A stretch of 64,000 bases of DNA from a virus: the IMG/VR virus record IMGVR_UViG_3300042462_000689; one strand, 5' to 3'. A program made the translations under genes and the position numbers. Positions 26,836 through 57,137 of this stretch are shown here, in pieces (within the stretch, counting starts at the first letter, position 1; each line of letters opens with the position of its first letter). The notes beneath the pieces were generated by a model. It was not told the origin of the DNA and ran no database searches. It saw only the letters and a list, made by a program, of their open reading frames with translations.

Positions 26836-29800
26836 ATGCCAACGGACAATTCACCAATCACCCTGCCCACCGGCGTCGTCCTGCGCGCCCCGGAGGATTT
26901 CGACACCCTGCGCACCAGCATTTACGACACCGCGAAGAAGGGCCTGGAATCCTCCTTTCCGACGTCCTACAACGGCGTGCGCATGGAATTGAAGGACGTG
27001 CATTACGCCGATCCGGATGACTTCCCGCTGGATGTGCAAAAGCAGGCCATGCTCACGGACAAATCCCTCGGCCGCCGGCTGCGGGGCTCCGTGCATCTCT
27101 ACGATGACAATACCGGCGACCTGCTGGACAAGCGGGACATGACGCTGATGACGGTGCCGCATATGACTGAGCGGGGCACGTTCGTGAACGCGGGCAGTGA
27201 CTACGCGCATGTAAATCAGGCCAGGCTCTTGCACGGCGCCTACAGCCGCCGGATGCAGAATGGCAACCTGAGCACTTCCGTGAACGCCAAGACCGGCACC
27301 GGTCCCGCCTTCCAGGTCGAGTTCGAGCCGACGACGGCGCAATACCGGATGCACATCCGCGGCAGCAATCTGCATCTCTATTCCCTGCTCCATGACATCG
27401 GCATCCCCGATGAGCAATTGGAGAAGACCTGGGGCCCTGAGCTGCTGGATCGTAATCGAAAGAAATACGACGCGCGGGTCATTAGCAAAGCCTACGAGCA
27501 TTTGGTCGCCCCCCGACACAAGCTGCCCGAGCACACACCCGAGGATCGCGTCAAAGCCATCCATACGGCATTGGACTCCGTGCGGGTGCACCGGGATGCC
27601 ATCGGCAAAACGCTGCCGGTCCTGCTCGGCGGCAAATCAGCCACGGCATGGCGGGCGAAGATGAGCGTCCGGCAGGCCGACTTCGAAAAGGAAATCTTCG
27701 CCCCTTCAATTCCACCACATGAGGCAATGGGCATGGGATTTGAAATGGCGCACCCGGAGATCTTTTTTGAGGTCGCCGGGGATTGTGAAGTGCCGGTGTT
27801 TGAAAAGCTGGCCAGCGCCAAATCCGAATCCGAAGCCAAAGGCTTTGAACCCGACCTGGATGCCGATGGTATGCGCGAGGCCTACAATGCCGTGTATGCC
27901 AAGGCAGGCCCGCGGCTGGCAGGCATGAAGCAATGGCCGAAGCACTGGTTTACGGACGAGGGCGATCCGCTCGGCTGGATTTCGTGGTATTGTCGATACG
28001 CCGATGGAGCGCGCGGTCCGGACGACGAGCGTCAAATCAACCGCTGGAAATCCTTCAAGGCGCGCAGCGTGCCACGCTTCATCAAGAACCCCACAGCCCG
28101 GCAGGCATTTGCGCTGCGGTATTGGGCAATCGACCCGCTGCCGCTGATTACGGATGCCGATGCACGGAAGCAATTGAAGGAGGACATGAAGGAGCACCAG
28201 GCGGCGGAGATGCGGAAGTTCTCGGAGCGGGCGTGTGATGATTATCCCAAATTGGAGCGTGAGAAGGAGGCCAGTGTGTTGGCGGTTGGTGTTGTCCCTC
28301 CGCCCAGAGACCTACCCGAATGGCAACTCGGCCTCATCAAATACGCACGGGCAAATGCGCCCAAGGATCCGGAGAAGCCCAATCCTGAATACAAGGGATG
28401 CCTGATGGCCCGACTGCAATTGTCCGACGCGAAGAAGATCATCGAATGGGCCGAGGAGAACATCCCGGAAGATCAATTGGCGGAGGACGGATTTGAACGC
28501 GAAATTCACTGTACAGCCCTATTCGGGATCCATCAAAGCGTCACGAAGGAGCTGCTCGAATCCGCCGTGAAGGAAATCATGAAGGACGCCGGCGGTTCGC
28601 TGATCCTGCAATTGAAGGAGATCCATCGGTTTCCTGCCAGCGAGCATCGCAACAGCGACGTCATTGTCCTGAAGTGCGAGTCGCCGTGGCTGGAGGAATT
28701 GCACTACGGGCTGATCGAGAAGCTGGGGGACAAGGTGCAGGTCACGTATCCTGATTACACCCCACATGTCACCGTGGCATACGTTAAGCCCGGAGCATTG
28801 AAGCATCTCGATGACAGCCAGGTGTTCGATGGGCAATTGCTGCCGCTGAGTCCTTTGATTTACTCGATTGCGGATCGCACTGCGAAACATGAAATTGAGA
28901 TGTTCGATTCCAAGATGGAAAAGGACGCAGCGGAAGTTCCAATGTTTGGGGATCAGCCGGCCCATGAGGTCGTCAGTCCCGGCGGGGCTCGCTCATCTCA
29001 TCAATTCACGACCAGCAGCGGGTCTCGTTATATCATGGGCGAGGATGGTTCTTCCCGCAGAATTAAGTCCTTCCATGCCAACACAGGTGGGGCAGATGTA
29101 GGCTTGAAACCGTGGCAGGAGAACATCCGATTTGTAGACCCGAAGAATCCTCATTTTTCTACAGACGTCGGGCGACTTCAAGAGTTGGGGCATCACGTGC
29201 ATCTGGCCCCAAGTGGCGAACAAATGGGTGTGAATATTTATGACCAGGCCGCGCAGAAGTGGAGGCCTGCTACTATTGCAGATGCGAGACCGAAGGCTGT
29301 CGCGGCCGGAATCCTCAAAGGCGGAGAGGCACCGCTGCGCGCGGGGATATCGGCAATCCCACAGCCAGGATCGCACGTGCTGGAGTGGAACAATCATTCC
29401 GACGGGCGCCTAAAGAGCGTACACCCCGGCAGCCCGGTTGCACAGACGGAGTGGGCAAGGCCGCCTGCGGCGACCACAACCCCAGCCACCCCAGCCCCAG
29501 CGCCTGCGTCAGCCGCCGCCCCAGCCGCCGCCCCAGCCGCCGCCAATGCCGTCACGGCCACCAAAGCGGTAGCTCCAATTGCGCCAGCCGCCTCAGCCGC
29601 CCCAACCGGCCTCAAACCTCTTGCGGCTCTAAAGGGTACTGCTGGCGCTCTCGATGGGGGTGCGGTGAGGGCGGCAGGTCGGGCCTTGGGAACTGGTGTA
29701 AAGATTGTTGGTGCGGTTGCCAGGCCCTTGTCTGCCATCACCACAGTAAATGACCTTTATCAATCAGCGACGAATCCTAGAGGTGCTGCAAAAGATTTTA

Positions 29801-30909
29801 ATGACAATTGGAATAAGGCAGGCCCGATCGGCCGTACGCTGTCCGTGATCGGCAGTCCAATTGCAGCGCTGAATGCGCAGGCTGAGAATCACGAGGAGAA
29901 TCGGGACCGGCTGCAAGACGCCCAACGTAGAAGCTCAATTCTTCCGATTCATCCACCGGACCCGGTATTCCCTCGACCTACGCAGCAATCAGATCCAAGA
30001 GCATTAACCCCGAGACCCCGCCCAGCACCGACGCCAGCACCGACGCCAGCACCGACGCCAGCCGTCCCCCCGGCACCCAAACCCACAACTCCGACCGGTT
30101 CTGGTTTTGTAGGGGCGCCACCCATTCCCAAACCTCCAGCGCCAGAACCCATCATGGCCGGGGGTCTCAGCAAGACCACCACGCCGTCGATCGGCAAGAT
30201 CGCCGCTGCCCAGCAAGGCTGGCCTCCAGTCGCTATACAGGAACTTCAGGCACGCTTCGCCGCTGACCAGAAAGCACGCGCGGGTGTCAATCCAACCACC
30301 ATGACTGCAGAAGCCGCACAACAGACGGAATCGGGCATGGCGAAAACGGATCGCGACAACACGGCATGGCTTCAATCCAACATCGGAAAATACGGCTGGC
30401 CCACTGGCGCCCCCGCGAATCAGGCTTGGTTGCTGGCACAGCATGCGGATCACGATCCGAAGTTTCAGGCCGTCGTGTTGGAGAAGATGCAGGCTGTGTC
30501 GAAGAATCTCCAACATCCGGAGCATCTGTCCAACGTGGCGTATCTGACGGACCGAGTGGCCGTGAATAATAAACAACCGCAGCTTTACGGCACGCAACTG
30601 AATCATCAGTGGGATCCCGTGAAAAACACATTTTCGAATCCGACACCGCACCCAATTAGCGATGCCGCAAACTTGGATGCGCGACGTAAGTCCATGGGGA
30701 TGGGACCGCACGTCGATTATTTGAAAACGCGTGCACCTGCCGCACCCGCCCCTACTCCCACGCCACAGCCCGCAGCACCGCCAGCTTCTGCACCGCCGCC
30801 GACACCCAGCGGGACAGTACCGAAAGCGCCCACCGCTCCCATGTCGTCAATTAAGGGTGTGCCGGGTGCAGTAAAATCCGCAGCCGCAAATGCAGAGGAT
30901 TCCAAATGA
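26836..30909 (+). CDS. Multidomain polyprotein: RNA polymerase beta N-terminal fragment + unknown DPxGW domain + Acb1-like 2H phosphodiesterase + Pro/Ala linkers + DUF6624-like domain
   Basis: VPHMTERGTFVNAGSDYAHVNQARLLHGAY matches RpoB IPLMTxxGTFxINGxERVxVSQLxRSPG; HCTA and DYTPHVTV 2H motifs; YGWP...AWLLAQHAD...AYLTDRVAVN...QLYGTQ; start reassigned to caaATG 26836. Confidence 0.8.
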   Translation: MPTDNSPITLPTGVVLRAPEDFDTLRTSIYDTAKKGLESSFPTSYNGVRMELKDVHYADPDDFPLDVQKQAMLTDKSLGRRLRGSVHLYDDNTGDLLDKRDMTLMTVPHMTERGTFVNAGSDYAHVNQARLLHGAYSRRMQNGNLSTSVNAKTGTGPAFQVEFEPTTAQYRMHIRGSNLHLYSLLHDIGIPDEQLEKTWGPELLDRNRKKYDARVISKAYEHLVAPRHKLPEHTPEDRVKAIHTALDSVRVHRDAIGKTLPVLLGGKSATAWRAKMSVRQADFEKEIFAPSIPPHEAMGMGFEMAHPEIFFEVAGDCEVPVFEKLASAKSESEAKGFEPDLDADGMREAYNAVYAKAGPRLAGMKQWPKHWFTDEGDPLGWISWYCRYADGARGPDDERQINRWKSFKARSVPRFIKNPTARQAFALRYWAIDPLPLITDADARKQLKEDMKEHQAAEMRKFSERACDDYPKLEREKEASVLAVGVVPPPRDLPEWQLGLIKYARANAPKDPEKPNPEYKGCLMARLQLSDAKKIIEWAEENIPEDQLAEDGFEREIHCTALFGIHQSVTKELLESAVKEIMKDAGGSLILQLKEIHRFPASEHRNSDVIVLKCESPWLEELHYGLIEKLGDKVQVTYPDYTPHVTVAYVKPGALKHLDDSQVFDGQLLPLSPLIYSIADRTAKHEIEMFDSKMEKDAAEVPMFGDQPAHEVVSPGGARSSHQFTTSSGSRYIMGEDGSSRRIKSFHANTGGADVGLKPWQENIRFVDPKNPHFSTDVGRLQELGHHVHLAPSGEQMGVNIYDQAAQKWRPATIADARPKAVAAGILKGGEAPLRAGISAIPQPGSHVLEWNNHSDGRLKSVHPGSPVAQTEWARPPAATTTPATPAPAPASAAAPAAAPAAANAVTATKAVAPIAPAASAAPTGLKPLAALKGTAGALDGGAVRAAGRALGTGVKIVGAVARPLSAITTVNDLYQSATNPRGAAKDFNDNWNKAGPIGRTLSVIGSPIAALNAQAENHEENRDRLQDAQRRSSILPIHPPDPVFPRPTQQSDPRALTPRPRPAPTPAPTPAPTPAVPPAPKPTTPTGSGFVGAPPIPKPPAPEPIMAGGLSKTTTPSIGKIAAAQQGWPPVAIQELQARFAADQKARAGVNPTTMTAEAAQQTESGMAKTDRDNTAWLQSNIGKYGWPTGAPANQAWLLAQHADHDPKFQAVVLEKMQAVSKNLQHPEHLSNVAYLTDRVAVNNKQPQLYGTQLNHQWDPVKNTFSNPTPHPISDAANLDARRKSMGMGPHVDYLKTRAPAAPAPTPTPQPAAPPASAPPPTPSGTVPKAPTAPMSSIKGVPGAVKSAAANAEDSK

Positions 30910-31634
30910 TCTCAAAACGCGACCTCAATTCACTTTCCCGCAAGCGCAACCAGCCCGTCAAAAGGGCGGCCTCGATAAAGCCGAAGCCCGCCCAGCCGGT
31001 CTCCCCGCAGGAACCGGAGGATCCAGACTACGTCCCATTTGGCGTGAAGGGTGTGCTGGGAGCCACGGAGCGCCTGCTGGCCGTCAGCCGCGGACTCGAT
31101 GAACCTGACAACCGGGACAGCTACGGCTTCAAACGCATTTGGGGCGTGGACAAACATCTCGGCGAACGCATCCGTCTCGATGCCGGCAAAATCCGCCGGC
31201 AGCAAATCCGCACGGCTGCCAAATTGCGATCCCTCAAGGGCACCCATCCATTTGCTTTCGATACCTACACTCGTGGCCTGATTCTCGGAGATCCCGGCGA
31301 GGCCAATCCTCTCAGCTCGCCCCTGGAGGAAATCAATCCATTGCATTTGCTGGAGCAGGCGCGTCGCATTACGCAAATGGGGCCTGGGGGGATTCAGTCG
31401 TCGCAGGCGATAACGGCCGACGGACAGAACGTCTCGGCATCTCAATTCGGATTTGTGTCCTCGATCGCTGGACCAGAATCAGAAAAGATCGGCATCGACG
31501 CCCGCCTCGCCCATGGAGTTCGAATTGGGTCCGACGGTCAATTGTATCAGCAGTTCAAAAATTCGCGGACCAAGCAATTGGAGTGGAAGACGCCCGGCGA
31601 GATTGAGCATCTTACAGTTCGCATCCCGGACTAA
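30906..31634 (+). CDS. RNA polymerase beta subunit, middle fragment (fork/rifampicin-pocket region)
   Basis: DNRDSYGFKRI; EEINPLHLLEQARRITQMGPGG...VSASQFGFVSSIAGPESEKIGI aligns with RpoB [22 protein letters not shown]...[22 protein letters not shown]. Confidence 0.88.
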   Translation: MISKRDLNSLSRKRNQPVKRAASIKPKPAQPVSPQEPEDPDYVPFGVKGVLGATERLLAVSRGLDEPDNRDSYGFKRIWGVDKHLGERIRLDAGKIRRQQIRTAAKLRSLKGTHPFAFDTYTRGLILGDPGEANPLSSPLEEINPLHLLEQARRITQMGPGGIQSSQAITADGQNVSASQFGFVSSIAGPESEKIGIDARLAHGVRIGSDGQLYQQFKNSRTKQLEWKTPGEIEHLTVRIPD

Positions 31635-31713
31635 ATTGGTATTTGACGACGATGTGTGTTTTGCAGATGATGCTTCCAGCAATCACGCAATTCTCTAAAA
31701 CACCCATCCACAA

Positions 31714-32823
31714 ATGATCGTCCAAAACATCAGCGGCCGCAAACTCAGCATCTCCATCGGGAACGTGTCTGCGGATCTCATCAGCAATCAGACCACGAGC
31801 GCAGGCACCTTTCCGGACACGGAGCAGGCCGCGGCGGACGCGGAGAAATATCGCAAGCTCGGCTACATCAAGGTGCTGTCCTCGGCCCTCGAAGCCGAAG
31901 GCGACCTCGATGTGCCGGCTGGCTACCTCCTTTCGGCGACCGGCCTCCCGGTGGTTCTGAAGGCGGCCACTGGCACGCTCACCATCACCAGCACGGGTCC
32001 GGCGGCAGACGAGACTTTCGCAATTGACGGCACGACTTTCACTTTCAAGGTGTCTGCCGCCACTGCGACCGAAGTCACTATCAGCACGACCCCAGCAACG
32101 CAGGCTGCGAACATTGTTTCCAAGGTGAATGCGCAGATGACCACGGTCACTGCAGCCAATGTGCTGGGTGTGGTTACGTTCACGGCGGTGACTCGCGGTA
32201 CTGCGGGCAATTCGATTGCTCTGGCGGAGTCAGCGGCCAATGTGGCGAAGTCCGACACTACCCTCACCGGCGGGACTGCCCACGGCGCAGAGAATGTCAC
32301 GGTCAACGGCGTGGTTTTTGAGGCGTGCGCCCAGGTCGGCGATGTCAGCGACAGCAGCTACGTTCCCGTGCTGATCGGCGCGACTGCCAGCTCCTGGCTC
32401 ACCAATCTGCAGACGGCGGTGAACGCCAACACTACCCTCATCGCTGCGCAGGTGCAGGCGCAGAGCCTCATCACCATCGTGGCGGCAACTGATGTGCGCC
32501 TGACTATTCAGGGCAACGGCAGCACGGCGGCCTCGGTCACAGCGGGCGTCACCAACCTCGCCATCGCCTCGGTCGCGGCGGTCAACCGCACAGCGGGCGT
32601 TCCTGTGATGGAGGACTTCGCGGTTACGGGCACTACGGCACTCGTGAACACTGGCCTTCGCACCATCGACCGTCTCGTCGTGCAGGCCAAGACTTCTGCC
32701 AACGCACTCAAGCCGCTGGACGGCACGCTGACAATCGGCGGCGGCCTGTTCTACATCACCGGCGGTTCCGCTGGCATCCTCGCGAACGGCGACACGCTGA
32801 CCTACATCGCGGAGGGCGTGTAG
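31714..32823 (+). CDS. Putative virion structural protein (Thr/Ala/Val-rich, beta-strand rich)
   Basis: ATGTLTITSTGPAADETFAIDGTTFTFK-type segments typical of tail or decoration proteins; strongly biased codons. Confidence 0.55.
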   Translation: MIVQNISGRKLSISIGNVSADLISNQTTSAGTFPDTEQAAADAEKYRKLGYIKVLSSALEAEGDLDVPAGYLLSATGLPVVLKAATGTLTITSTGPAADETFAIDGTTFTFKVSAATATEVTISTTPATQAANIVSKVNAQMTTVTAANVLGVVTFTAVTRGTAGNSIALAESAANVAKSDTTLTGGTAHGAENVTVNGVVFEACAQVGDVSDSSYVPVLIGATASSWLTNLQTAVNANTTLIAAQVQAQSLITIVAATDVRLTIQGNGSTAASVTAGVTNLAIASVAAVNRTAGVPVMEDFAVTGTTALVNTGLRTIDRLVVQAKTSANALKPLDGTLTIGGGLFYITGGSAGILANGDTLTYIAEGV

Positions 32824-32857
32824 TCCATTTGATTTCAACTCCAAACCATAAAATTAA

Positions 32858-33028
32858 ATGACACACGCTGACCAAGTAAAAGCCCACAACTACGCAATGA
32901 ACACGCATCTGCTTGCCGCCGGCAAGTCGGAGGCGTTCGTCAAAGCCGCCCTCGCCAAATTCCCGGAAGTGCAGAAGGCTCGCGTCTCGCGCTCCTCGCA
33001 CATCGCGAAGACGCTCCTCGGCGCGTAG
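32858..33028 (+). CDS. Small protein (56 aa) missed by ORF track
   Basis: MTHADQVKAHNYAMNTHLLAAGKSEAFVKAALAKFPEVQKARVSRSSHIAKTLLGA; aaattaaATG start. Confidence 0.65.
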   Translation: MTHADQVKAHNYAMNTHLLAAGKSEAFVKAALAKFPEVQKARVSRSSHIAKTLLGA

Positions 33029-33081
33029 TTCGTCGAAGATTCCCATTGCCGAAATCACGCCGCGGTCTTTAGGCTGTCGGC

Positions 33082-33747
33082 GTGATTTTGCGTACTGACG
33101 ACAGCTCGATTCAACAATTCAAGAATGCCCTGCGCGATGCGCTGAGCAACCGGAGGATCCCATTGTACCAGCTTGCCGAGGCAGGGAAGGTGCATCGGAA
33201 GACATTTGGTGAATGGCTCAGTAGCAAACGAAAACCGAGACCAAGCTCCATGCGTCGTTGCAGCGAAAACCTGCAATTGAACTGGGAGCGCAAATCCAAA
33301 TCCACCAGCAGACATCCGCCACGCGGACCGCTGGAGGAAGCAATCAAGCGCAGCCGGGAAAAGCTCGCTACCCGAGGAGCATGTTACGCCGTAGAGGATG
33401 TGGGTATCCGGGTGGCCGCCAGGCTGCGCGACGCCGGCATTCCACTGAAGGTGGAGACGCATTACACGGATGACGCCCCCTGCGTGATCATGGTCATCGA
33501 CAACTGTGCGTTTATTTCAGGCGCCATGCATTTCAGCGTCCACGCCCATGCGGGTTCCATCAATTACGAGCTGGGGACTGTGGACTTCGTCACCGCTCAA
33601 AGCATCCGTCACCTCTTCGGCGCGCTGAGCGCAAAGGCCGTGGATGCCGCAATTGATTTTATTTTGAAGGCAGCACGCAAACACAAAGGGGATCGCAATC
33701 CCCTGCAAGACCTAGACTCCAAGCTGGAGGAAGCAATTCACAACTGA
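33082..33747 (+). CDS. XRE-like helix-turn-helix protein
   Basis: LRDALSNRRIPLYQLAEAGKVHRKTFGEWLSSKRKP resembles Cro/C1 HTH. Confidence 0.55.
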   Translation: MILRTDDSSIQQFKNALRDALSNRRIPLYQLAEAGKVHRKTFGEWLSSKRKPRPSSMRRCSENLQLNWERKSKSTSRHPPRGPLEEAIKRSREKLATRGACYAVEDVGIRVAARLRDAGIPLKVETHYTDDAPCVIMVIDNCAFISGAMHFSVHAHAGSINYELGTVDFVTAQSIRHLFGALSAKAVDAAIDFILKAARKHKGDRNPLQDLDSKLEEAIHN

Positions 33748-33751
33748 GCAT

Positions 33752-34435
33752 ATGACACACCTCGCAAACGAAGACCTGACACCCGACGCGGTAGTCGATC
33801 AGCACAACGCAGTCCTGGCAGCCTTGCGTCGGGCCGGGCAGTCCATGGGGGATGGGCAAGCGACTGATGACTACAATGCATCCGAGCCGTACAGCAACAT
33901 CAGACTTTTACCCACCGAGCAGCGCAGCATTCCGCGACAGGAAATCCCCACAATGAAGATCGCCCTGCAGCACCGGGACTTCACCATGCACCTGCAGGTC
34001 ATTGACGTGTGCGTGGGGGAGGACCAAATCGGCGTCATCATGCCGGCCAGCCTCCACGTCGAGACCATCCGCAACAAGGCCAAGTTCGATTTGGTATTTG
34101 AGGAGCAGAGCTACCCCATCGCCTACTTCGGCGGTAATTTCACATTCACGGCAGCCGACCCGGAATTGCGGATGCTGACGTTCATGCGGCTTCCCACACC
34201 GACAACCAGTTCCTGATGGCGAAAGCCAATTGAAGCCGCTACACTCGGGGTCATGATGACGAAATCTGCTGTCGTAACCAAGGACACTCCCTCCGTCGTG
34301 TCCGCCCGCCGCGGCACCGAGGTGCGTGACGGCGAGGCCGTACGCCGCGGGGAGCAATTGCCCGAGGTATATGCCCGCCCGCTGGAGAAAAATGCGGCGG
34401 TGCGCGTGAAGCCAATTCATTCCGAAGACCAGTAG
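33752..34435 (+). CDS. Two hypothetical ORFs (33752..34216, 34253..34435)
   Basis: Upstream of portal-like gene. Confidence 0.55.
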
Positions 34436-34438
34436 CAC

Positions 34439-36292: not shown

Positions 36293-36297
36293 ATCAA

Positions 36298-37173
36298 ATG
36301 CGTGAAGTCAATTTGCAGTTCCTGAATAATTTGGATAATCCGAAAAAGGAGAGCCCCTCTGAAATGCGCATGCCCATTTTTCGAATGCACGGTTTGACTG
36401 GAGTGTATTGCGCAATTCATCGCGAAACCGGAATGTGTTATGTGGGGAGTGCTTCAGTCAGCATTCAACGGCGGTACACGGCGCACCTGAGGCAAGCTAG
36501 GTGTGGGAGTAAAACTGCGTTTCACTCGGCAATTAGAAAATACGGAGCGTCTGCGTGCGATTTCGAGGTGCTGCGTGAGTGTAAGCCCGCTGAGGTTTTG
36601 AAGTGGGAGACTTTTTATATCAAATTTCTGAATTCGGCTTCCGTGGAAGGCTTTAATACCGTGACCGAACCAGGAACCACCTTGCTCGGGTTCAAGAAAA
36701 CGGAGGTCATGCGTTCACGTATCTCGCAGGCAAACAAAGGAAATGTTTTCTCGGCGGAGAGTCGCGAGAACATGTCCAAGGCTAAAAAAGGAAGGCCTAT
36801 TGCGCCAGAGGTAATGGTGCAAAGGTTAGAGTACTACAAGACACATCCGACATCCACAGAGACCAGAGCAAAGATATCCAAAGCAGTGAAAGGAAGGAAG
36901 GCTTCTCCAGAAACCATTGTTAAGATAGCGGCTGCAGCACGAGGGAGGACGTGGTCAGAAGCGGCAAGAAAGCAGATGTCCGCTACACGAACGGGTAGAA
37001 AGGCGTCCGACGAGACCCGTAATAAAATGTCCCAATCGAAAAAAGGAAAACCCAAGTCTGAGGAGACCAAACGGCGCATGGTCTTGGCGTGGCAAATACG
37101 CAAACAGAAGAAAGCCGAAATGAAGGCAGCGCAGGAATTGGCAAACGCCCCGGAAACGAGCTATACTTCCTGA
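36298..37173 (+). CDS. GIY-YIG homing endonuclease with NUMOD3 repeats
   Basis: GVYCAIHRETGMCYVGSA...RRYTAH; repeated (H/K)S.ETR.K(I/M)S...KG motifs. Confidence 0.88.
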   Translation: MREVNLQFLNNLDNPKKESPSEMRMPIFRMHGLTGVYCAIHRETGMCYVGSASVSIQRRYTAHLRQARCGSKTAFHSAIRKYGASACDFEVLRECKPAEVLKWETFYIKFLNSASVEGFNTVTEPGTTLLGFKKTEVMRSRISQANKGNVFSAESRENMSKAKKGRPIAPEVMVQRLEYYKTHPTSTETRAKISKAVKGRKASPETIVKIAAAARGRTWSEAARKQMSATRTGRKASDETRNKMSQSKKGKPKSEETKRRMVLAWQIRKQKKAEMKAAQELANAPETSYTS

Positions 37174-37174
37174 C

Positions 37175-37396
37175 ATGCCCCATCACCGCACCGCCGATGA
37201 AATGCTGAAGTCCCTGCAGGAAAGCGGCCTCTTCACGCACCAGCGTTCCAAATCAAAGGACTTCAAAAAGCCGGAGGACGCGACACCCGTGAACACAGAC
37301 AAGACCGATCCGCTGCTGCCAGTGGAATCCATGATGCCCGAAACCATTCTACCGAAGACGATGGCCGCGCAGGGATTGATCCTCAGGCAGCCGTAG
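37175..37396 (+). CDS. Small hypothetical protein
   Basis: 73-aa ORF. Confidence 0.5.
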   Translation: MPHHRTADEMLKSLQESGLFTHQRSKSKDFKKPEDATPVNTDKTDPLLPVESMMPETILPKTMAAQGLILRQP

Positions 37397-37411
37397 GATA
37401 CCATCTTCCAA

Positions 37412-38449: not shown

Positions 38450-38462
38450 AAAACCAAATCAA

Positions 38463-45479: not shown

Positions 45480-45540
45480 GCGTTTGTGGGAGTGAAGCAT
45501 TGCAAAAGGCAGCCCGCCACGGTAATGAGGATGGATTCAA

Positions 45541-45825: not shown

Positions 45826-45837
45826 AGTGGAGCCCTC

Positions 45838-46934: not shown

Positions 46935-46945
46935 CCAAAAAACAA

Positions 46946-47611
46946 ATGAGTGAACAAGAAGAAGAGCAGGTGCTCGTAATCCCCCGCCGCGCATTCGACG
47001 CCTGCGGGTCATTTCAGGGCTACAGCCCAAATGTGACGCAGTATATGGATTTGCTCAGCGGCGAGCTTTTCCAATACATGCCACGGTCGAAGGCGGAGCA
47101 GGACGAGACCGCGAAGCAGATCATCCCTTACGTGGTGTTTGCCCGGCGAAACGAAAATGCCATTGAATTGCTGACGTATCAGCGTTCCAAAAAATCAGGC
47201 GAAACGAGATTGGCGTCGAAATACTCAATCGGCATCGGAGGCCACATCAATAGCGGCGACCTGGACTACCAGACGGCGCTGATGCGCGAGATCAACGAGG
47301 AGATCAGTTTCGGTGGCGTCAGTCCATTGTCGCCCGGTGACCCAATTGGCATCCTGAATGACGACAGCAATGCCGTCGGCAGAGTGCATCTGGGGTTTGT
47401 GCATCTGGTGATGTTGAGCAGTGATGCGATGATTCACCGACACGAGGATGCGCTGGCGAATCTGCAATGGATTGCGCTGGAGGAGCTGGAGGATGCAGTC
47501 AGTTGCGAAACCATGGAGTTCGAGACATGGTCTCTGCTGTGCATGAAACCCGTGATGCGGAAGGCGCTGGAGCGGTCACTTGCCGAGGTCGTCGCCGCCG
47601 GAAAGCAGTGA
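46946..47611 (+). CDS. NUDIX-family phosphoesterase
   Basis: KQIIPYVV...E.RL..KYSIGIGGHIN...REINEEI...GILNDDSNAVGRVHLG. Confidence 0.85.
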   Translation: MSEQEEEQVLVIPRRAFDACGSFQGYSPNVTQYMDLLSGELFQYMPRSKAEQDETAKQIIPYVVFARRNENAIELLTYQRSKKSGETRLASKYSIGIGGHINSGDLDYQTALMREINEEISFGGVSPLSPGDPIGILNDDSNAVGRVHLGFVHLVMLSSDAMIHRHEDALANLQWIALEELEDAVSCETMEFETWSLLCMKPVMRKALERSLAEVVAAGKQ

Positions 47612-49651: not shown

Positions 49652-49652
49652 C

Positions 49653-49880
49653 ATGAGAAAGGCGAAGTCAATTCTGCATGTGAATCAACATGCTGTGCGC
49701 GCAAACAAAAAGGACGGAGGCAACCGACCTGTGATCACCCACAAGCAGAGGCGCACGAACAATTACGGACACACCGCAGAGATCGCCGGGCCTTCCATTC
49801 TGGTCTATCGCCCGGACAAGCCATTGTCGTGTGGGGCAAGGTGCTGGATCGAAACTTATGCGGACGTGACGCTGCGGTGA
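49653..49880 (+). CDS. Conserved small phage protein
   Basis: ILHVNQH..RAN...PVIT...GPS.LVYRPDKPLSCGARCWIET pattern recognised from many phages. Confidence 0.7.
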   Translation: MRKAKSILHVNQHAVRANKKDGGNRPVITHKQRRTNNYGHTAEIAGPSILVYRPDKPLSCGARCWIETYADVTLR

Positions 49881-49922
49881 TTTGATTTAGATTTGGGTCA
49901 ATTGGGACAGGCTGGGAGCCTG

Positions 49923-49953
49923 TGAAATACGACGCACTGGCGCGTCATATAAT
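49923..49953 (+). promoter_or_regulatory. Bipartite promoter-like motif, copy 2
   Basis: TGAAATAC-N13-GTCATATAAT, intergenic. Confidence 0.65.
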
Positions 49954-50107
49954 CATGCGAAGGAGTGATTCCCTCATTCCGTCGCTGGGGTCAATTCCGA
50001 TCCCCATGCCGCATCCTGCGGCCCTCAATTCGCCGGGGTCCAATACCAAAGGACACCCGTTAAATTAGAGGTTCTCAATTCGGAAATCATGCAAACCAAC
50101 ACACACC

Positions 50108-51631
50108 ATGAACACCATCAAACCCTACGAAATCCGCCCGCTCCTCAACCCGGTCCTCACAAACTTTGAGGCGCGGGCCGTGCAGGTGACGTCACCGCGG
50201 CTGTCACACGTGCCGTCTCGCCATCGCGGCGAGCGCCAGGGGCAGGCCCAACGCTTCACCCGCCACGAGGCGGACCGCGCAGCCATCGGATCCCGCAATA
50301 CGGATCTGGCGGCCATGGGCATCAATCCCGACGGTACGCTGAGTAGCGGCTTCAACGCCCGCATCACCACCCGTCTCAGCTCGAAGGCCACACAATCGTT
50401 CTCCGTGGTGGAGTTCGTCGGCATTGGGGTGGTGACGCCGCAGAACGGCTTCGAGAAGTTTCATCTTCTCGATGCCAACATCCCAGGACGGGAAGATGGC
50501 GTGGTCTGCTATGACCTCAATACGTTCTGGCTGAACAGGGAAATCGGGGAGCGCTTCATGGCGTTCGCCATGGTGTGGGGGCCTGCCATGGCCTTCAGCT
50601 TCACCCCCAGGACCCTGACCGACCACGGCTGGATTTGGGGCGGGCCCGGAGAGGAGCGGCAGCCGCTCATCAACTGCAGTGCCATGTGGTTCCCGCCGAT
50701 CACGGCGGACAACCGCGGCGGGCATCATGGCCGGTTGGCCATGGAAGGGCTGCAGGAGCTGGGCTTGCAGTTCCGGGAGGATGGGTCAATTGAGGCCCTG
50801 CGCCAAAAGGCCATGGAGCCGGATGTGTTCGAGGCCGCCCGCCCCTTCTTCGAGGAAGATTGGAAATCCGTGCTGGCGGCCACCAATCCCACCAAGGCGA
50901 GCAATGTGGTGCGTGAGGCGATCATCCGTCCGTTGGGATGGAGTGGGCACACTGCCGAAAGGCAGGTCTATGCGCAGACGCTGGGCCACCCCACGAAGGT
51001 GGAGTTGAACGAGGAGCAGCGCGCCGCATTCGGTGCATTCGAGCGGGTCACGACCGAAGACTTCGGTCTGAAGCCGAAAGCCACGACGACCGTCGCGGTC
51101 GCGGTCTCGGCACCGGTGCCACCCGCCCCGCCCGCAATGGTCGCCGCAATGACACCGCCGCCACCACCGCCAGAGTTCGAAGCGAAGGCACGGGCATTCT
51201 GGTGGATCGACACTACCGGCACCAAGAGCATGGTCGCCGGTCCCATCACCGAAGGCGAGGCGCGCGTGGTGGCGCAGCGCTACCCGGCGGGCAAGTTCAA
51301 CGAAGTGGATTCCACCACGGGCTGGCAGTCCGCCTTGGAATACAACCTCATGGCGCCAGCAGCTCCGATGCCGCCTGCGCCTCCGGCAGAAGCATGGCAG
51401 GCCGCCGAGGTCAAGGAGACTGCGGCCCATGTGGCGGCAGCCCCCGAGGCGGTCGCGCCGGCTGCCAAGAAGAAGACCGTGAAGACGGTCGAGCGGCGGA
51501 AGAAGACCAAAGCCACGGTGCCGGCAGCTGAGCCGGCGGAGGAATCCGGGACTGACGAGCCGAAAGGCCTGAGCGTCCTGGACGACCCAAAACTTCGGGC
51601 AATGCTGGAGGCAGCACTGCCGGTCGGCTAA
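50108..51631 (+). CDS. Hypothetical protein with C-terminal Pro-rich linker and GYF_2-like module
   Basis: AFWWIDTTG...AGPITEGEAR...TTGWQSA flanked by Pro/Ala tracts. Confidence 0.6.
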   Translation: MNTIKPYEIRPLLNPVLTNFEARAVQVTSPRLSHVPSRHRGERQGQAQRFTRHEADRAAIGSRNTDLAAMGINPDGTLSSGFNARITTRLSSKATQSFSVVEFVGIGVVTPQNGFEKFHLLDANIPGREDGVVCYDLNTFWLNREIGERFMAFAMVWGPAMAFSFTPRTLTDHGWIWGGPGEERQPLINCSAMWFPPITADNRGGHHGRLAMEGLQELGLQFREDGSIEALRQKAMEPDVFEAARPFFEEDWKSVLAATNPTKASNVVREAIIRPLGWSGHTAERQVYAQTLGHPTKVELNEEQRAAFGAFERVTTEDFGLKPKATTTVAVAVSAPVPPAPPAMVAAMTPPPPPPEFEAKARAFWWIDTTGTKSMVAGPITEGEARVVAQRYPAGKFNEVDSTTGWQSALEYNLMAPAAPMPPAPPAEAWQAAEVKETAAHVAAAPEAVAPAAKKKTVKTVERRKKTKATVPAAEPAEESGTDEPKGLSVLDDPKLRAMLEAALPVG

Positions 51632-51642
51632 ACAGAAAACAG

Positions 51643-51683
51643 GTTTGCGCCGCCCTCCCGAGTCAAATCGGGAGGGCGGTTGC
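51643..51683. repeat. 41-bp direct repeat copy 1 (contains 12-bp hairpin)
   Basis: GTTTGCGCCGCCCTCCCGAGTCAAATCGGGAGGGCGGTTGC. Confidence 0.9.
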
Positions 51684-51708
51684 TGCCTTCAAATCAAAAA
51701 TATAATTA

Positions 51709-51864
51709 ATGATTATTTGGGTTAAAGCAAACAGAGGTGATGCCTGGACGGAATATGCCGAGGGTGTCATGTCGGCCAGGGCGGCATTTCGAATTGCCAA
51801 GCAAATCAGATCATCGGTCTGGTTGGTAAAGGTTCTGCCGCTGTACGAAATACCCCAAGAATGA
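51709..51864 (+). CDS. 51-aa ORF between the direct repeats
   Basis: MIIWVKANRGDAWTEYAEGVMSARAAFRIAKQIRSSVWLVKVLPLYEIPQE; fills the inter-repeat interval. Confidence 0.55.
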   Translation: MIIWVKANRGDAWTEYAEGVMSARAAFRIAKQIRSSVWLVKVLPLYEIPQE

Positions 51865-51866
51865 GC

Positions 51867-51907
51867 GTTTGCGCCGCCCTCCCGAGTCAAATCGGGAGGG
51901 CGGTTGC
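51867..51907. repeat. 41-bp direct repeat copy 2
   Basis: Identical to 51643-51683. Confidence 0.9.
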
Positions 51908-51966
51908 GCCTGCTTCTGCTTTCGATCCGACTTTCAATCTCAAATTCCCTGTGCAATACTTCCCCA

Positions 51967-54900
51967 ATGTTCACCGTAAAAAAGGCCAATTCGGATTCCC
52001 GCCACGAGGTCGAAGGAATCATGAGCCAAATTCTCGCAGAGTCTCCCAAGTCATGGCCGCACGGCCTGAGCATGGATTTGTTCGAGGAGGGAAGGGACAG
52101 CATTTACATGGTGCGATCTGCCTCCACCAACCAGCCGGCCGGATTTGTGGGCTGGCAGGAGCGCGAGGAGCGGGACTGCCTCAATCAGCCCATCAAGATC
52201 GGGTATTACGCAATTGGCATGCTGCCCGAATTCCGCCGGCAGGGGATGGCCAAGGACGCGGTCGCCGGCATCATCCGCCATCACCAGCGCGGCGTGGATG
52301 AGGTGCGCGCAATGATTCAAAAGGACAACACGCCTTCATTGAAATTGGCGGAGTCGCTCAATGTGCCGGTGGAGAAGGTGGCGTTTTGGAAGGCGTTGCT
52401 GTCTCCGGTCGCCAGGCGCATTTATGGAGGTCTTGGCTCCGCGGGCGCGATGGATTATCTCACCCATGGCACCGACTATTCCCATATCGACGGGCGGCGT
52501 GTTCTGAACACGGCAGTGAACGCCGGACTGGGGGCTTTGGGTGCGCATTATTCCATGCCACACAAGGGGATGGGTGGTGTTCTGCTGCCGGGTAATCCGG
52601 CGGTCGGATTCAATTTGGGGGTTCTATCCCCCATTGGAAAAGACATCATGATGAACGTCCTTCCGGCGACGCATAAGCTGGCACCCGCGTTGGACGCACT
52701 GACGGACAAAGCCAAACAAGCCCCCGCAGTCCCCGCAGTCCCAACCCCCGAATGGTCCCCGCTGGCAAAAGCCGGGCTCATCGGGGCGCTGGGCCTTGGA
52801 GCCTACGGCGTGCACCGGCTGAGTAAATCCATCAGCAATGCCGCGGAGGCCAACAACCAGGGTCGCCTGCAGGTCCGCCTACCCACCCGCCACCCTGGCG
52901 ATCAGGAGACGACCGTGGACGTGCCGGTGAGCGACGCAAATCTGACGGGTGGCCTCAAGGATCGCATCTTCCGGGATACGCGCAGGAAGCTGCGGCAGGA
53001 ATCCAAGGAGCGCACCTGGCATCGCGGTGACAAGCATCGCCTGCTTTCCAATGATGAAGACGACGACGGCATGGAAAAGGTCGCAGCCTGCTTTCTGTGG
53101 CTGGTCAAGGAGGCAGGTATAAGTTCGAGTGAGATACAAGACGCGGGGAATAAGCTGGAAGCGGCAGCCCTTGCCGCCAACACACTGCAGAGAATTTCAC
53201 CGACCGCGAAGCTCGCACCGCTCGCCAGGGGTCTGGGCAGACTAGCACCTCCGGTTGCTACTTACGGTGCGGTAAACGAATTTGCCGATTTTTCTGATGA
53301 TCCAAATGCTGCAATGCGCAAATTTTGGAAAGATACGAAAGGCATGAGCAATGCAGGATTCGCCTATCACAGCGTGACGAATCCAATAACGGCGACGGCG
53401 TCCGTATTGAACGGAGCATGGAATCGGATGCACGGACGTCCCCTTGCACCAGCCGCACCACCCAAAGGGGAACAATGGCCGCTCGCCCGGCGCAGACAAC
53501 CCGAAACAATGGTTGTGGTCCCGCACACACCAGCGGCTCACGGAGCGAAGCCGAACCCCGGCATTTACAATACGCACAAGGCACCCAATTTTACAGGACC
53601 GACAAATCCCACATCCGGCGTGAAGAGCGGGGGCGGCAATGTCGGCGGAATGATGACGGCAATGCCCACGAAGCCAATTCCGACAATTCAATTCGCATCA
53701 AGTATCAAAGGCCCCGGCGAGACCGAGGACCCGCAGGCCAAGATGGAGCAGGAAAAGGAACAGGCGGAGCAGGCAAAGCAATTGGAAGCTGCGCAGGCTG
53801 ATTCCGACACCCACAAAAGCACTCTCACTGAGATGAAGGAACACCAGCATTCCGAGCGGATGCAAATGCGCGAGCAATTGATGGCCCACCAGCAGAAGCT
53901 CCATGAGATGAAGCTGGAGAACGCCAGTCTTCGCGCGAAGGCGGACATGGCCTCCACGGTTCCCGAGCCGCAGGAGAATAGGGGCGCGACGCAGGTGAAC
54001 GATTACGCGACGCAATTGCACAACAAGGCCACCTCCATCATGAAGAAGCTGTCGGCGGTGAATCCGTACTACGCGAATCTGCTCTGGGACCGCGCATGCA
54101 AGATGGCCGGCGTGACCCCTGATGCCGGCGCGGCCGGGGAGGAGGATTATTACCGGCAGCACAATTCGGGCGGATTTGGGCAGGCGATGACGGGATTTGG
54201 ATTTCATGACAAAGGCATGCAGGATTCCGCATACAACGCCATCAATCCGACCAAGCCGGAAGCCCAATGGGGCATGGGTGACAAGATGAAGCACTGGGGC
54301 GCCAATCTGGCAGCCGGAGCCGGCTGGTTGGGGGACGCGCTGGTCTCTCCTTTTAGGTATGGAACCCGCAGCCTCCTCCGCGCAGGTTCCCATTTCAGCG
54401 AGGGGAATTACGGCAAAGGACTCATGCATGGCACGCTCGGAACCGCATCGGCAGCGCTCGGTGTGTTGCCTGGGGTAGGGGCTTTACGTAGCGGCATCGG
54501 CGCGGGTGCCAGATTGACGGGATTGACGCGGGGCATGATGACGGCCAATATCCCGCAGGTGGCAGAAGGCGCAAAGCAGCCCCCCACACCAATGGCGCCT
54601 GGAGTCGTTGCTGGTACGCCCACACCGACTCCAGGCGCGCCGGCCTCCCCATCCTCAGACATCCCCATGATTCTCAAATCGTGGCTGGGATTAGGCGGGG
54701 ATGCTAATACCACAAATGACGCCGGACATTTTCTGCCGCCTTCCCTCGTCTCGCAGAATCCGGGCAACGAGGACTCGCCTGACTACAAGAACCCATTCCT
54801 ACAAAAGGTGATGCCAACCGCAATGCGTTTCCTGGCCAAAGGCCCGGCCCCTGAGAGCAGCATGCGGGCATTTGCGGAGTCCGAGGGATCGCAGGGTGGC

Positions 54901-54999
54901 ATTGCGCCGCAGGAGATTCGCCCTGGTTACCTGTCACCCTCCACCGCGATGGCGTTGCAGAATGCCTTGTATGGTGGTGGTGGTGGACTGGGCATTTGA
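51967..54999 (+). CDS. Multidomain putative virion protein with N-terminal GNAT acetyltransferase
   Basis: GFVGWQE...IGYYAIGMLPEFRRQGMAKDAV (acetyl-CoA motif RRQGMA)...NTPSLKLAESL; then Gly-rich segments and a coiled coil; start reassigned to 51967. Confidence 0.7.
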   Translation: MFTVKKANSDSRHEVEGIMSQILAESPKSWPHGLSMDLFEEGRDSIYMVRSASTNQPAGFVGWQEREERDCLNQPIKIGYYAIGMLPEFRRQGMAKDAVAGIIRHHQRGVDEVRAMIQKDNTPSLKLAESLNVPVEKVAFWKALLSPVARRIYGGLGSAGAMDYLTHGTDYSHIDGRRVLNTAVNAGLGALGAHYSMPHKGMGGVLLPGNPAVGFNLGVLSPIGKDIMMNVLPATHKLAPALDALTDKAKQAPAVPAVPTPEWSPLAKAGLIGALGLGAYGVHRLSKSISNAAEANNQGRLQVRLPTRHPGDQETTVDVPVSDANLTGGLKDRIFRDTRRKLRQESKERTWHRGDKHRLLSNDEDDDGMEKVAACFLWLVKEAGISSSEIQDAGNKLEAAALAANTLQRISPTAKLAPLARGLGRLAPPVATYGAVNEFADFSDDPNAAMRKFWKDTKGMSNAGFAYHSVTNPITATASVLNGAWNRMHGRPLAPAAPPKGEQWPLARRRQPETMVVVPHTPAAHGAKPNPGIYNTHKAPNFTGPTNPTSGVKSGGGNVGGMMTAMPTKPIPTIQFASSIKGPGETEDPQAKMEQEKEQAEQAKQLEAAQADSDTHKSTLTEMKEHQHSERMQMREQLMAHQQKLHEMKLENASLRAKADMASTVPEPQENRGATQVNDYATQLHNKATSIMKKLSAVNPYYANLLWDRACKMAGVTPDAGAAGEEDYYRQHNSGGFGQAMTGFGFHDKGMQDSAYNAINPTKPEAQWGMGDKMKHWGANLAAGAGWLGDALVSPFRYGTRSLLRAGSHFSEGNYGKGLMHGTLGTASAALGVLPGVGALRSGIGAGARLTGLTRGMMTANIPQVAEGAKQPPTPMAPGVVAGTPTPTPGAPASPSSDIPMILKSWLGLGGDANTTNDAGHFLPPSLVSQNPGNEDSPDYKNPFLQKVMPTAMRFLAKGPAPESSMRAFAESEGSQGGIAPQEIRPGYLSPSTAMALQNALYGGGGGLGI

Positions 55000-55017
55000 A
55001 AAATTAACTGAGTAAAT

Positions 55018-55230
55018 ATGAAAACTTTCAATTACAAAGGCGGGACGATCTCGTTGGAATTCAAAATCCCAGAACTGATCCACCATGCTACATTGCTGGG
55101 AGCGTACCAACCAACACGCGCTGAGCAGGAGGAGCAAAAGCGCCGACAGCACGAGGCTGACCGCATTGGCTTCCTGCAGGATTTGCGCGAATTGGAATGG
55201 ATGAATCGCCGGCTGACTGGTAATTACTGA
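55018..55230 (+). CDS. Small hypothetical protein
   Basis: 70-aa ORF directly upstream of RNAP fragment. Confidence 0.5.
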   Translation: MKTFNYKGGTISLEFKIPELIHHATLLGAYQPTRAEQEEQKRRQHEADRIGFLQDLRELEWMNRRLTGNY

Positions 55231-55232
55231 TC

Positions 55233-57137
55233 ATGCCTGCCGCACCCACCGCATACGGAATCAAAGGAGGGAAGATCCAGGAGATCGATTCCGAGGAAGC
55301 CGACTACGAACTGCCCCACATGGCAGCCACGTTGGACTCCCACATCAACTTGATTCCAATGCAGAATGCGGTGCAGGCTCCGCGGCTGTTCTACGGCGCA
55401 CGCTTCTACAATCAGGCGCTGGCCCTGCAGAACCGGGAGACGCCGCTGGTGCAGTCCCTCATTCCCGACGACCCGGATGGTAGGACATTTGATGAGCATT
55501 TCGGGCCGATGGTCGGTGCATTGCATTCCAAGCATCAGGGGACGGTGGACGCTGTGGATTCCGACAGCATCACCCTCAAGACTCCGGAGGGGAAGAAGCG
55601 CATCCCGCTCTATAACACGTTCAGTTTTAATCGTAAATCCAGCCTGCATCAGACCCCCGAGGTAAAAGTCGGGGATGAAGTGACGCCTGGGCATTTGCTG
55701 GCCTCCTCCAATTACACCGACAAGAAAGGCGCGTTGGCTCTCGGACTCAATGCCCGAGTCGGTTTCGTTCCCTACAAGGGATGGTCCATGGACGATGCCG
55801 TGGTCATCTCGCAGGCATTTGCCGATCGGCTCAAATCCGAGAAGCAATTGACGCACGCGCAGGAGTTCGACGATGACACCAAAGGCGGACTCCATCATTT
55901 CGTCAGCCTGTTTCCGACGGCATTTGAAAAGGCCAAGCTGGCGAACATGGACGAGCATGGCGTCATCAAAAAGGGCAGCATCATCAAGGAGGGAGACCCG
56001 ATGATTCTAGCCACTGCTCCAAAGGTGGTGACGGCCCGCGATGCGCAGGTGGGCAAACTCTCACGCACGCTTCAGCAGACCCGACGCAATGCCACGCAGC
56101 TTTGGGATCACCAGGATCCTGGTGAAGTCATCGACGTGGCACGCACCTCGAAGGGGGTGAAGGTGGTGGTGAAATCCATAAGCGCCACGCGAGTAGGGGA
56201 CAAGATTGTAACGCGAAACGGACAAAAGGACATCGTGTCGCGCATCATTCCAAACGAGCACATGCCGCGTACGCTGGACGGTGAGCCGCTGGAGGTGTTG
56301 ATGAATCCTCTCAGTGTTCCGAGTCGCGTGAACAACAATTTCATCTACGAGACGCTGCTGGGCAAAATCGCAAGGAAGAGCGGGCAGCCCTACCGCCTGC
56401 GCGGCTTCAATGGTCCCGGCGAGAAGTATCACGAGTTCGTCGAAGCTGAGTTGGCGAAACACGGACTCCAATCCACCGACGAGGTGTTTGACCCGCAATC
56501 CAATAGGAAATTGCAGCGTCCAATTACCACGGGTGTGGCTCATTTCTTCAAGCTGCACCATGAATCCGAATCGAAATCGTCTGCGCGAGGCATTTCCGGA
56601 TATGACGCGAATCAACAACCGAGCCGCGGTGCTGGGGAGTCTGCCCAAAGTAAAAGACTCTCGGGGTTAGAGGTCGGAAGTCTGCTGTCATCGGGAGCAT
56701 ACGCAAATCTCAAAGAAGCCTCCACCCTACGCGGACAGCAGAACGATCAATACTGGCGGGAGGTCCGCCTGGGTCACAAACCTCCAATGCCCGGTGAGCC
56801 ATTTGTCTGGCATAAATTCAAAACGCTATTGAACGGCGCCGGTCTTCACGCAAAGGATATCGGCGGTGGAAAATTGCGACTTGGGGCGTTCACGGACAAA
56901 GCCCTTGCTGCGCATGACCCGAAGGAGATAGCCCACGGAGGCACAGTCAATCTCGCAACCCTCGAAGAAGAGCCCGGCGGATTGTTCGACCCCAGCCTGA
57001 TTGGCAATAATCGGTGGGGAAAAATAAGCCTGCATCAGCCAATGCCGCTACCCTCCATGGAATCCAGCCTGAGAACTTTGTTGTCGCTCACAAAAAAAGA
57101 ATTCGAGGAAGTTCTTAGCGGAAAAAGAAACTTGTAA
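55233..57137 (+). CDS. RNA polymerase beta C-terminal fragment fused to the start of beta'
   Basis: NLIPMQ...RLFYGARFYNQA; LALGLNARVGFVPYKGWSMDDAVVIS; GDKIVTRNGQKDIV (both conserved Lys); NPLSVPSRVN; KLHH...QQP...KRLSGLEV; then TVNLATLEEEPGGLFDPSLIG..RWGKISL matching RpoC TINYRTxKPExxGLFCxxIFG/RMGHIEL. Confidence 0.92.
   Translation: MPAAPTAYGIKGGKIQEIDSEEADYELPHMAATLDSHINLIPMQNAVQAPRLFYGARFYNQALALQNRETPLVQSLIPDDPDGRTFDEHFGPMVGALHSKHQGTVDAVDSDSITLKTPEGKKRIPLYNTFSFNRKSSLHQTPEVKVGDEVTPGHLLASSNYTDKKGALALGLNARVGFVPYKGWSMDDAVVISQAFADRLKSEKQLTHAQEFDDDTKGGLHHFVSLFPTAFEKAKLANMDEHGVIKKGSIIKEGDPMILATAPKVVTARDAQVGKLSRTLQQTRRNATQLWDHQDPGEVIDVARTSKGVKVVVKSISATRVGDKIVTRNGQKDIVSRIIPNEHMPRTLDGEPLEVLMNPLSVPSRVNNNFIYETLLGKIARKSGQPYRLRGFNGPGEKYHEFVEAELAKHGLQSTDEVFDPQSNRKLQRPITTGVAHFFKLHHESESKSSARGISGYDANQQPSRGAGESAQSKRLSGLEVGSLLSSGAYANLKEASTLRGQQNDQYWREVRLGHKPPMPGEPFVWHKFKTLLNGAGLHAKDIGGGKLRLGAFTDKALAAHDPKEIAHGGTVNLATLEEEPGGLFDPSLIGNNRWGKISLHQPMPLPSMESSLRTLLSLTKKEFEEVLSGKRNL

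Follow-up and report, generated by a model that had tools for sequence, protein, structure and literature searches.

RNA polymerase genes in the window and in the complete genome

We analysed a 64,000-nucleotide stretch (hereinafter, the window) of the virus record IMGVR_UViG_3300042462_000689, which corresponds to bases 76271-140270 of this complete, 185,656-bp record with terminal repeats. Between positions 26836 and 57137, the plus strand of the window carries three open reading frames (ORFs) for parts of a bacterial-type multisubunit RNA polymerase (RNAP) that are collinear with gp206, a single ORF of Salmonella phage Arash, in line with a preliminary description that had recognized three collinear RNAP pieces in the sequence. 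The same description had placed the remainder of beta-prime beyond the window, and both of the missing pieces were indeed found elsewhere in the genome. We interpret these genes, with a probability of about 0.8, as encoding a single working bacterial-type RNAP that is assembled non-covalently from five polypeptides and originates from an Arash-type ancestor cut three times. The features of the region, in window coordinates, are as follows.

26770..26799, plus strand: terminator-like GC-rich hairpin followed by TTCTTT, read from the sequence, just upstream of the beta-N start
26836..27650, plus strand: beta-N module, amino acids (aa) 1 to ~270 of a 1357-aa ORF (family profile, BLASTP)
27651..30909, plus strand: non-RNAP extension of the beta-N chain, ~1090 aa (Pfam, PHROG 755)
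30906..31634, plus strand: beta-mid, 242 aa (Pfam Rpb2_3, E = 5e-6; PDB beta chains, E = 1e-7)
55233..56870, plus strand: beta-C part of a 634-aa chain, aa 1 to ~546, starting at the DYMD-equivalent region, including the catalytic double-psi barrel and reaching the beta C-terminus
56871..57137, plus strand: beta-prime-N1 part of the same chain (55233-57137), aa ~547-634, first clamp strands, about E. coli beta-prime 7-130
57167..58168, plus strand: ORF directly after the beta-prime cut, possibly a free-standing endonuclease (only a PHROG 'endonuclease VII' match, E = 2e-6)

The beta-N module comprises the N-terminal protrusion/lobe part of beta, about residues 30-225 of the E. coli protein. 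A family profile of the module matched bacterial beta chains in PDB over residues ~33-225 (E = 2.5e-12), and BLASTP aligned the module with aa 28-264 of Arash gp206 (E = 7e-17). The start is assigned to the ATG at 26836 rather than to the GTG at 26704 because the homologues align from residue 2. Scans of the genome for Pfam Rpb2_1 and Rpb1_3 yielded no matches, so that recognition of beta-N required the family profiles together with the collinearity with Arash. The gene had been labelled simply as beta-N, which holds for the first ~270 of the 1357 aa, whereas the other ~1090 aa are, according to Pfam, unrelated to RNAP (see below).

The TGA stop codon of the beta-N gene overlaps the start of beta-mid (ATGA) by 4 nt, and contigs from two other lake-water runs span this junction unchanged; beta-mid is probably translationally coupled to the preceding gene, and the terminator-like hairpin upstream of beta-N would mark the end of the preceding unit. 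Following a unique N-terminal tail of 45 aa, beta-mid covers the fork and the rifampicin-pocket region, aligning with E. coli beta 425-576 and extending to about 610, and it matches aa 270-469 of gp206. The altered rifampicin-pocket residues reported previously are confirmed as six substitutions, which, numbered as in E. coli, are Q513S, F514P, D516E, H526Q, S531T and L533M; R529 and P564 are unchanged. It is reasonable to expect that the enzyme is insensitive to rifampicin, as are other phage multisubunit RNAPs.

The 634-aa chain encoded by the third gene matched Pfam Rpb2_6 over aa 99-466 (E = 6e-54) and bacterial beta chains in PDB (E = 6e-46), with the alignment reaching the last beta residues. 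Both active-site lysines are present (GDK...GQK; K324 and K332, aligned with E. coli K1065 and K1073), as is the acidic pair (SMDDA; D187 and D188, aligned with E. coli E813 and D814). As proposed originally, beta-C runs into ~90 aa of beta-prime without a stop codon: positions 547-1111 of the profile of fused relatives align in one stretch with actinobacterial beta-prime 7-627, and beta-prime-N1 is collinear with gp206 up to aa 1104, the same ORF continuing in Arash to the VIPP...RP and DYDGD motifs. The beta-prime zinc finger was likewise correctly described as missing: GGLFD is separated by 8 residues only from W595, the Trp of the next strand, so that the zinc-binding domain is absent. There is no cysteine in aa 545-634, the E. 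coli counterpart stretch having ~44 residues with four cysteines, and the family consensus indicates that the deletion is family-wide.

Outside the window, genome positions 162107-165493 encode beta-prime-N2, the Mg-site piece of 1128 aa. It consists of a unique 240-aa N-terminal part, a segment equivalent to E. coli beta-prime ~180-470 that includes the lid, the clamp helices and the Mg barrel, a 506-aa LAGLIDADG intein that sits inside the Mg motif, and ~100 more beta-prime residues; aa 243-528 align with Thermus beta-prime 456-748. The 240-aa extension (genome 162107-162830) contains a zinc-ribbon-like CPNC...CREC. This motif was considered as a relocated zinc-binding domain of the family and rejected, being present in 2 of 107 stand-alone homologues and in none of 112 fused forms. 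The other piece, beta-prime-C (genome 1698-4754, 1018 aa), is the bridge-helix and trigger-loop half, with matches to Rpb1_5 (E = 3.5e-10) and, in BLASTP, to E. coli beta-prime 636-936 and 1186-1285. A weak Rpb1_1 match at genome 75106-75234 falls in a helicase region and was dropped.

In the complete genome, Rpb2_6 and Rpb1_2 each have exactly one locus, and every beta and beta-prime region is present once. The order of the pieces is strictly N-to-C on one strand: beta-N, beta-mid, 23.6 kb, beta-C::beta-prime-N1, 28.7 kb, beta-prime-N2, 21.9 kb across the ends, beta-prime-C. A sigma70-type ORF of 220 aa is located at genome 63709-64371 (Sigma70_r2, E = 5e-9; r4, E = 1e-5). For alpha and omega, no PF01193 or PF01192 match was obtained at E<=10 in the complete genome, compared with matches in 14 of 14 control genomes, although very divergent versions might be present or host alpha might be used.

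Layouts among relatives and the position of the cuts

Among cultured phages, Salmonella phage Arash and Vibrio phages D69, D148 and D181 are the closest, with genomes of ~180-187 kb. Arash gp206 is a 1525-aa single ORF that includes beta plus the N-terminal half of beta-prime, and D69 likewise has one ORF. Four of the chains described here align with gp206 end to end (aa 28-264, 270-469, 484-1104 and 1146-1516, with the intein skipped), the 634-aa chain being 32% identical to gp206 over its whole length. To our knowledge, beta is unsplit in all bacteria; because this is also the state in the full-length phage forms, the cuts inside beta are derived. Thus, the assumption that the pieces were cut and re-fused is not supported: given the one ORF of Arash and D69 and the unsplit beta of bacteria, the arrangement looks instead like a fused ancestor that was cut three times.

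Among 243 cluster representatives sampled in a census, 130 contain beta-C and beta-prime-N1 only, 99 extend into beta-prime-N2 and 13 are full-length. In 242 of the 243, beta-prime-N1 is attached to beta-C, the remaining one being a 1331-aa protein without a detected beta-prime part. Chains of the same type, 635-645 aa long, are found in >100 protein clusters, on phage contigs of up to 224 kb, so that the fusion, together with the split of beta, is not as distinctive as it had first appeared. Stand-alone beta-prime-N2 of ~375 aa similarly accounts for >100 clusters. In related IMG/VR genomes, the pieces are also cut, with stand-alone beta-N and beta-mid, and follow the same order, with different gene blocks between them.

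The first cut coincides with the position of a dispensable insertion in E. coli beta (about 225-343), the spot occupied here by the 1090-aa extension, and the second one falls at beta about 610-650. The third cut is at beta-prime about 130-180, where Thermus has a non-conserved domain and the fused relatives have a linker of only about 5 residues. The fourth, after the Mg barrel and ~100 aa past the Mg motif, is common to Arash, the C-terminus of beta-prime-N2 aligning with the end of gp206.

A proposed five-chain RNA polymerase

In the enzyme that we propose, chain 1 would be beta-N plus a ~1090-aa array of accessory enzyme domains, chain 2 would be beta-mid, and chain 3 would be beta-C covalently extended into the first ~90 residues of beta-prime. 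Chain 4 would be beta-prime-N2, with the lid, the clamp helices and the Mg-binding barrel, from which the LAGLIDADG intein would have to be removed, and chain 5 would be beta-prime-C, with the bridge helix and the trigger loop. The phage sigma70-type factor would direct the enzyme, with no alpha or omega involved. We infer that all five chains assemble and that the beta/beta-prime junction, the sole link that is never cut, holds beta and beta-prime together as a substitute for the alpha dimer. As for the origin of the system, it would descend from an Arash-type polymerase with beta and the N-terminal half of beta-prime fused, which would have been cut at three surface sites; other gene blocks would then have gathered between the pieces, with the N-to-C order retained.

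The stronger argument for assembly comes from conservation: the ~90 aa of beta-prime-N1 include 11 residues, among them G582-D586, W595, G596 and P607, that are invariant across 43 homologues at 51-60% identity. In our assessment, this outweighs the complex prediction described below.

The beta-N extension and probable packaging in the virion

The extension of the beta-N chain consists of unassigned domains, a 2H phosphoesterase domain (Acb1-like), Pro/Ala-rich linkers and DUF6624. The 2H domain, at about 28390-28794, retains two HxT motifs and matched the Pfam families Acb1 (E = 3e-6, at its cut-off) and 2_5_RNA_ligase2 (E = 5e-5); a firm identification of this domain as Acb1 was dropped, the Pfam match being at threshold only and the PDB sequence search giving E values of 0.12-0.5. 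DUF6624, at about 30235-30726, was identified by Pfam with E = 4e-12.

A HMMER search of 1.8 billion representatives detected homologues of the beta-N module in 908 cluster representatives (E<=1e-10) of 260-3350 aa, with the module almost always at the N-terminus. The extensions differ: Pfam analysis of 10 homologues revealed 2H; GNAT with LigD phosphoesterase and ATP ligase; NUDIX with GNAT; GH108 lysozyme with peptidoglycan-binding and NUDIX domains; and pyrophosphatase, with no Pfam match in 5 of the 10. Other RNAP chains in the family bear lysozyme and LysM domains. As a side observation, proteins headed by beta-N and carrying unrelated enzyme domains resemble injected polyvalent proteins of other phages.

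The Arash proteins gp206 ('beta') and gp216 ('beta-prime') and the sigma factor gp10 are abundant in purified virions (PMC10585845). Considering the beta-N extensions, the lysozyme and LysM fusions and this virion abundance together, a packaged, enzyme-carrying polymerase is reasonable but unproven; judging from Arash, the virions of this phage probably contain the enzyme and inject it, which would deliver the beta-N effector array as well. Alternatively, the enzyme might be functional but made only after infection, to transcribe middle and late genes, with the beta-N extension acting inside the infected cell. One RNAP equipped with its own sigma could be enough for every phase of infection, the pieces are not visibly part of a head-gene block, and detection in virions is so far limited to the uncut Arash enzyme. 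Against this stand the very high spectral counts of both RNAP chains and sigma in Arash virions and the fusion of wall-degrading lysozyme, LysM and GH108 domains to RNAP chains of relatives, which is sensible mainly for ejected proteins. We view an enzyme that is not part of the virion as possible, although not as the expected outcome.

The active-site intein and the arguments against a working enzyme

Several points weigh against the interpretation of the five genes as a working, packaged RNAP derived by three cuts. The phage is known from DNA alone, no RNA run with its sequence having been found; packaging is known only in a relative of ~32% identity with an uncut gene. A FastTree tree of the beta-C region rooted with E. 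coli agrees with the cuts being derived: the full-length forms branch first, followed by the class of ~1127 aa and then by the class to which the present chain belongs, within which three small groups of longer forms are also placed; because the tree includes a single outgroup with 48% gaps and excludes 19 mostly intein-bearing rows, this branching order of the layouts is suggested, not proven.

The complex prediction, a check envisaged in the preliminary description, supports the docking of two of the pieces but covered one of the four interfaces, with residues 430-634 of the 634-aa chain modelled against residues 236-523 of beta-prime-N2 using separate alignments. The score was 0.79, compared with 0.01 for the best of 3 controls; 58 of the 80 solved complexes and 2 of the 110 mismatched pairs attained that mark. 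Three runs agreed in at least 95% of the contacts, with a predicted local distance difference test (pLDDT) value of at least 84 for the partner, and the predicted strand 595-607 pairs with strand 299-307 of beta-prime-N2 before the lid, as in bacterial beta-prime. Because the modelled interface resembles those of solved RNAPs, this result demonstrates likeness rather than binding by these particular copies.

The main reason why our confidence in a working enzyme is not higher is the asparagine at the active-site intein. A partner with the NADFDGD motif, the presence of which had been predicted, is encoded in the genome, but its third aspartate is in question: the motif reads NLDFDG-N, followed by the intein (Cys first, ...VVFD, Asp last) and then Thr, where intein-free relatives have NADFDGD-T/A. 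Canonical splicing would put Asn at the Mg-site position that is the third Asp in every known RNAP, and because of this predicted replacement, RNAP activity is not assured. However, Asn at position -1 recurs in 10 of 11 cis-intein alleles at the Mg site, which come from diverged lineages, with Asp last in all 3 that have a visible end; it is therefore a conserved pattern, not an error. The pairing of Asn(-1) with the terminal Asp may mean that the splicing step itself produces the third catalytic Asp or gates activity. An overarching scheme that would combine such an intein-gated third Asp with a capsid-packaged, injected split machine, in which the small chains are joined solely through the tether that replaces alpha and beta-N is a carrier that brings swappable enzymes into the cell along with the DNA, appears doubtful as a whole; in such a scheme, the cargo may be the Acb1-like 2H phosphodiesterase and DUF6624 here, and GNAT, NUDIX, ligase, lysozyme and pyrophosphatase in relatives.

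The same site appears to be interrupted in another way in other members of the family. In 58 cluster representatives of the ~1119-1540-aa class, the beta-C::beta-prime-N chain ends 12-13 aa past DFDGD with a Cys-led peptide (CQWGHVF...). One relative (chain 164500-167895) has a separate 325-aa ORF (173251-174228), 5.3 kb off, that reads ...VVLSN/TMNVHVP and then continues into the rest of beta-prime-N. This pair has the appearance of a naturally split intein located in the active site of the RNAP, its N-terminal piece being extremely short; the Pfam match is weak (E = 0.034).

Rejoining of the pieces after translation, by protein trans-splicing or another ligation, such that the mature chains would be fewer than the genes, would fit the abundance of inteins in the family and this split-intein-like arrangement in relatives of the ~1127-aa class (the Cys-led end and the distant ORF with ...VVLSN/T). 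In the genome analysed here, however, there are no intein remnants at the three cuts and no Hint/intein domain in the chain ends, and the termini of the four chains are flush with Arash or carry unrelated tails, with no Cys/Ser/Thr nucleophile context, so that we consider this explanation very improbable. Equally hard to credit is a decaying relic with a damaged Mg site in a phage that relies on host RNAP redirected by the phage sigma: the reading DFDG-N and the interruption of the active site by an intein would agree with it, and the phage sigma could in principle serve the host core enzyme, but the five-piece layout, the conserved termini and the invariant residues recur in >100 diverged clusters, there are no internal stops, the Asn(-1) is itself conserved, and the complete genome is encountered again in many lake samples.

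Comparison with known systems

The RNAP described here and those of Arash, D69, D148 and D181 belong to the same family and share the zinc-finger-less fused junction, a beta-prime cut located past the Mg barrel and the use of a phage sigma. In Arash, beta and the N-terminal half of beta-prime form one ORF, whereas here the same part is encoded by four genes over ~60 kb; furthermore, the 1090-aa extension of beta-N, as well as the 240-aa extension and the intein of beta-prime-N2, are absent in Arash.

The phiKZ/AR9-type RNAPs resemble this one in the encoding of beta and beta-prime in several polypeptides, in the cut of beta-prime after the double-psi barrel and in the lack of alpha and omega. 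Otherwise the two types differ: the phiKZ/AR9 type has two paralogous sets, one for the virion and one non-virion, and lacks both a sigma and a beta/beta-prime fusion, compared with one set, a sigma and a fusion here, and its cut sites in beta are different. It is also far more divergent from bacterial RNAP, whereas the likeness to bacterial beta here reaches E = 1e-46, and the PHROG matches of our pieces to the phiKZ/AR9 group are weak and local. In the virion RNAP of AR9, an HD enzyme domain is fused to a beta piece (PMC7598289).

Our literature search for the fused or split layout found the Arash isolation paper, reviews of the phiKZ type and the mReC survey, none of which describes it. Gp206 is called 'beta' in the Arash paper, which records it in the virion and leaves the fusion undescribed (PMC10585845), and reviews of phage multisubunit RNAPs treat the phiKZ/AR9 type only. 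In the mReC survey, only subunits of 800 aa or longer were accepted (PMC7481178), which would exclude the split forms, so that the family was probably missed. The family is thus annotated yet undescribed in the literature searched; it is widely distributed rather than confined to the genome analysed here.

Continuation of the beta C-terminus into the beta-prime N-terminus also occurs among cellular enzymes, namely, in the rpoB-rpoC fusions of Helicobacter/Wolinella and Wolbachia and in engineered E. coli beta::beta-prime tethers. In those fusions, both subunits are complete, and alpha, omega and the zinc finger are retained, whereas here only ~90 beta-prime residues are attached. Cuts at surface loops or insertion sites are tolerated, with assembly preserved, in the cyanobacterial and plastid rpoC1-rpoC2, in the archaeal B'/B'' and in E. 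coli beta split in vitro. Cyanobacterial gamma ends ~60 residues beyond the fourth cut, the only one that is near a known natural site; the other three differ from the plastid and archaeal cuts as far as they could be mapped here, the archaeal site not having been compared.

In T4-like phages, mobile endonuclease genes cut genes for essential enzymes into parts that are translated separately and then reassemble, as in the split of nrdA in Aeh1. The present case is similar in that a weakly assigned, endonuclease-like ORF adjoins one of the cuts, and it differs in the age of the beta-prime-N1 cut, which is old and common to ~130 sampled clusters. For this ORF (57167-58168), Pfam gave no match even at E = 1, and the endonuclease nature of it and of the ORF at the equivalent cut in the closest relative was not upheld, resting on PHROG alone or on no match at all.

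Genomic neighbourhood and occurrence

The genome has a guanine plus cytosine (GC) content of ~57%, with nearly all genes on the plus strand. The neighbours of the RNAP pieces are mostly without assignment, apart from an endonuclease of the GIY-YIG type and one protein each of the NUDIX and GNAT families, and no head-gene block is visible among them. The 23.6-kb block between beta-mid and beta-C holds a GIY-YIG/NUMOD3 homing-endonuclease gene (36298-37173) and a NUDIX hydrolase gene (46946-47611), most of its other ORFs having no family match. Just 5' of the beta-C gene, a 1031-aa ORF (51904-54999) contains an N-terminal GNAT acetyltransferase domain and an unassigned remainder. A large DNA polymerase ORF (PHROG 17) is located at 10437-14696 of the window.

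DNA of this uncultured phage was detected in 24 lake-water metagenome runs. In the RNAP region, no frame-breaking variants were found in the 4 lake-water runs compared, and a 634-aa protein identical to the one described here is encoded on 17 contigs from several sources.

Implications

Three layouts of the same enzyme occur naturally in the family, namely, a long chain with the fusion, a form cut at beta and a five-gene form, and the family is large in lakes, soils and oceans. This series shows where a bacterial-type RNAP tolerates cuts and which single link is always kept, and it bears on assembly in the absence of alpha. The cultured phages Arash and D69 make the fused form testable, and the split form is reconstitutable from five genes. 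Finally, two separate questions arise, one on protein delivery, from the effectors attached to beta-N, and the other on splicing-dependent activation, from the Mg-site inteins.

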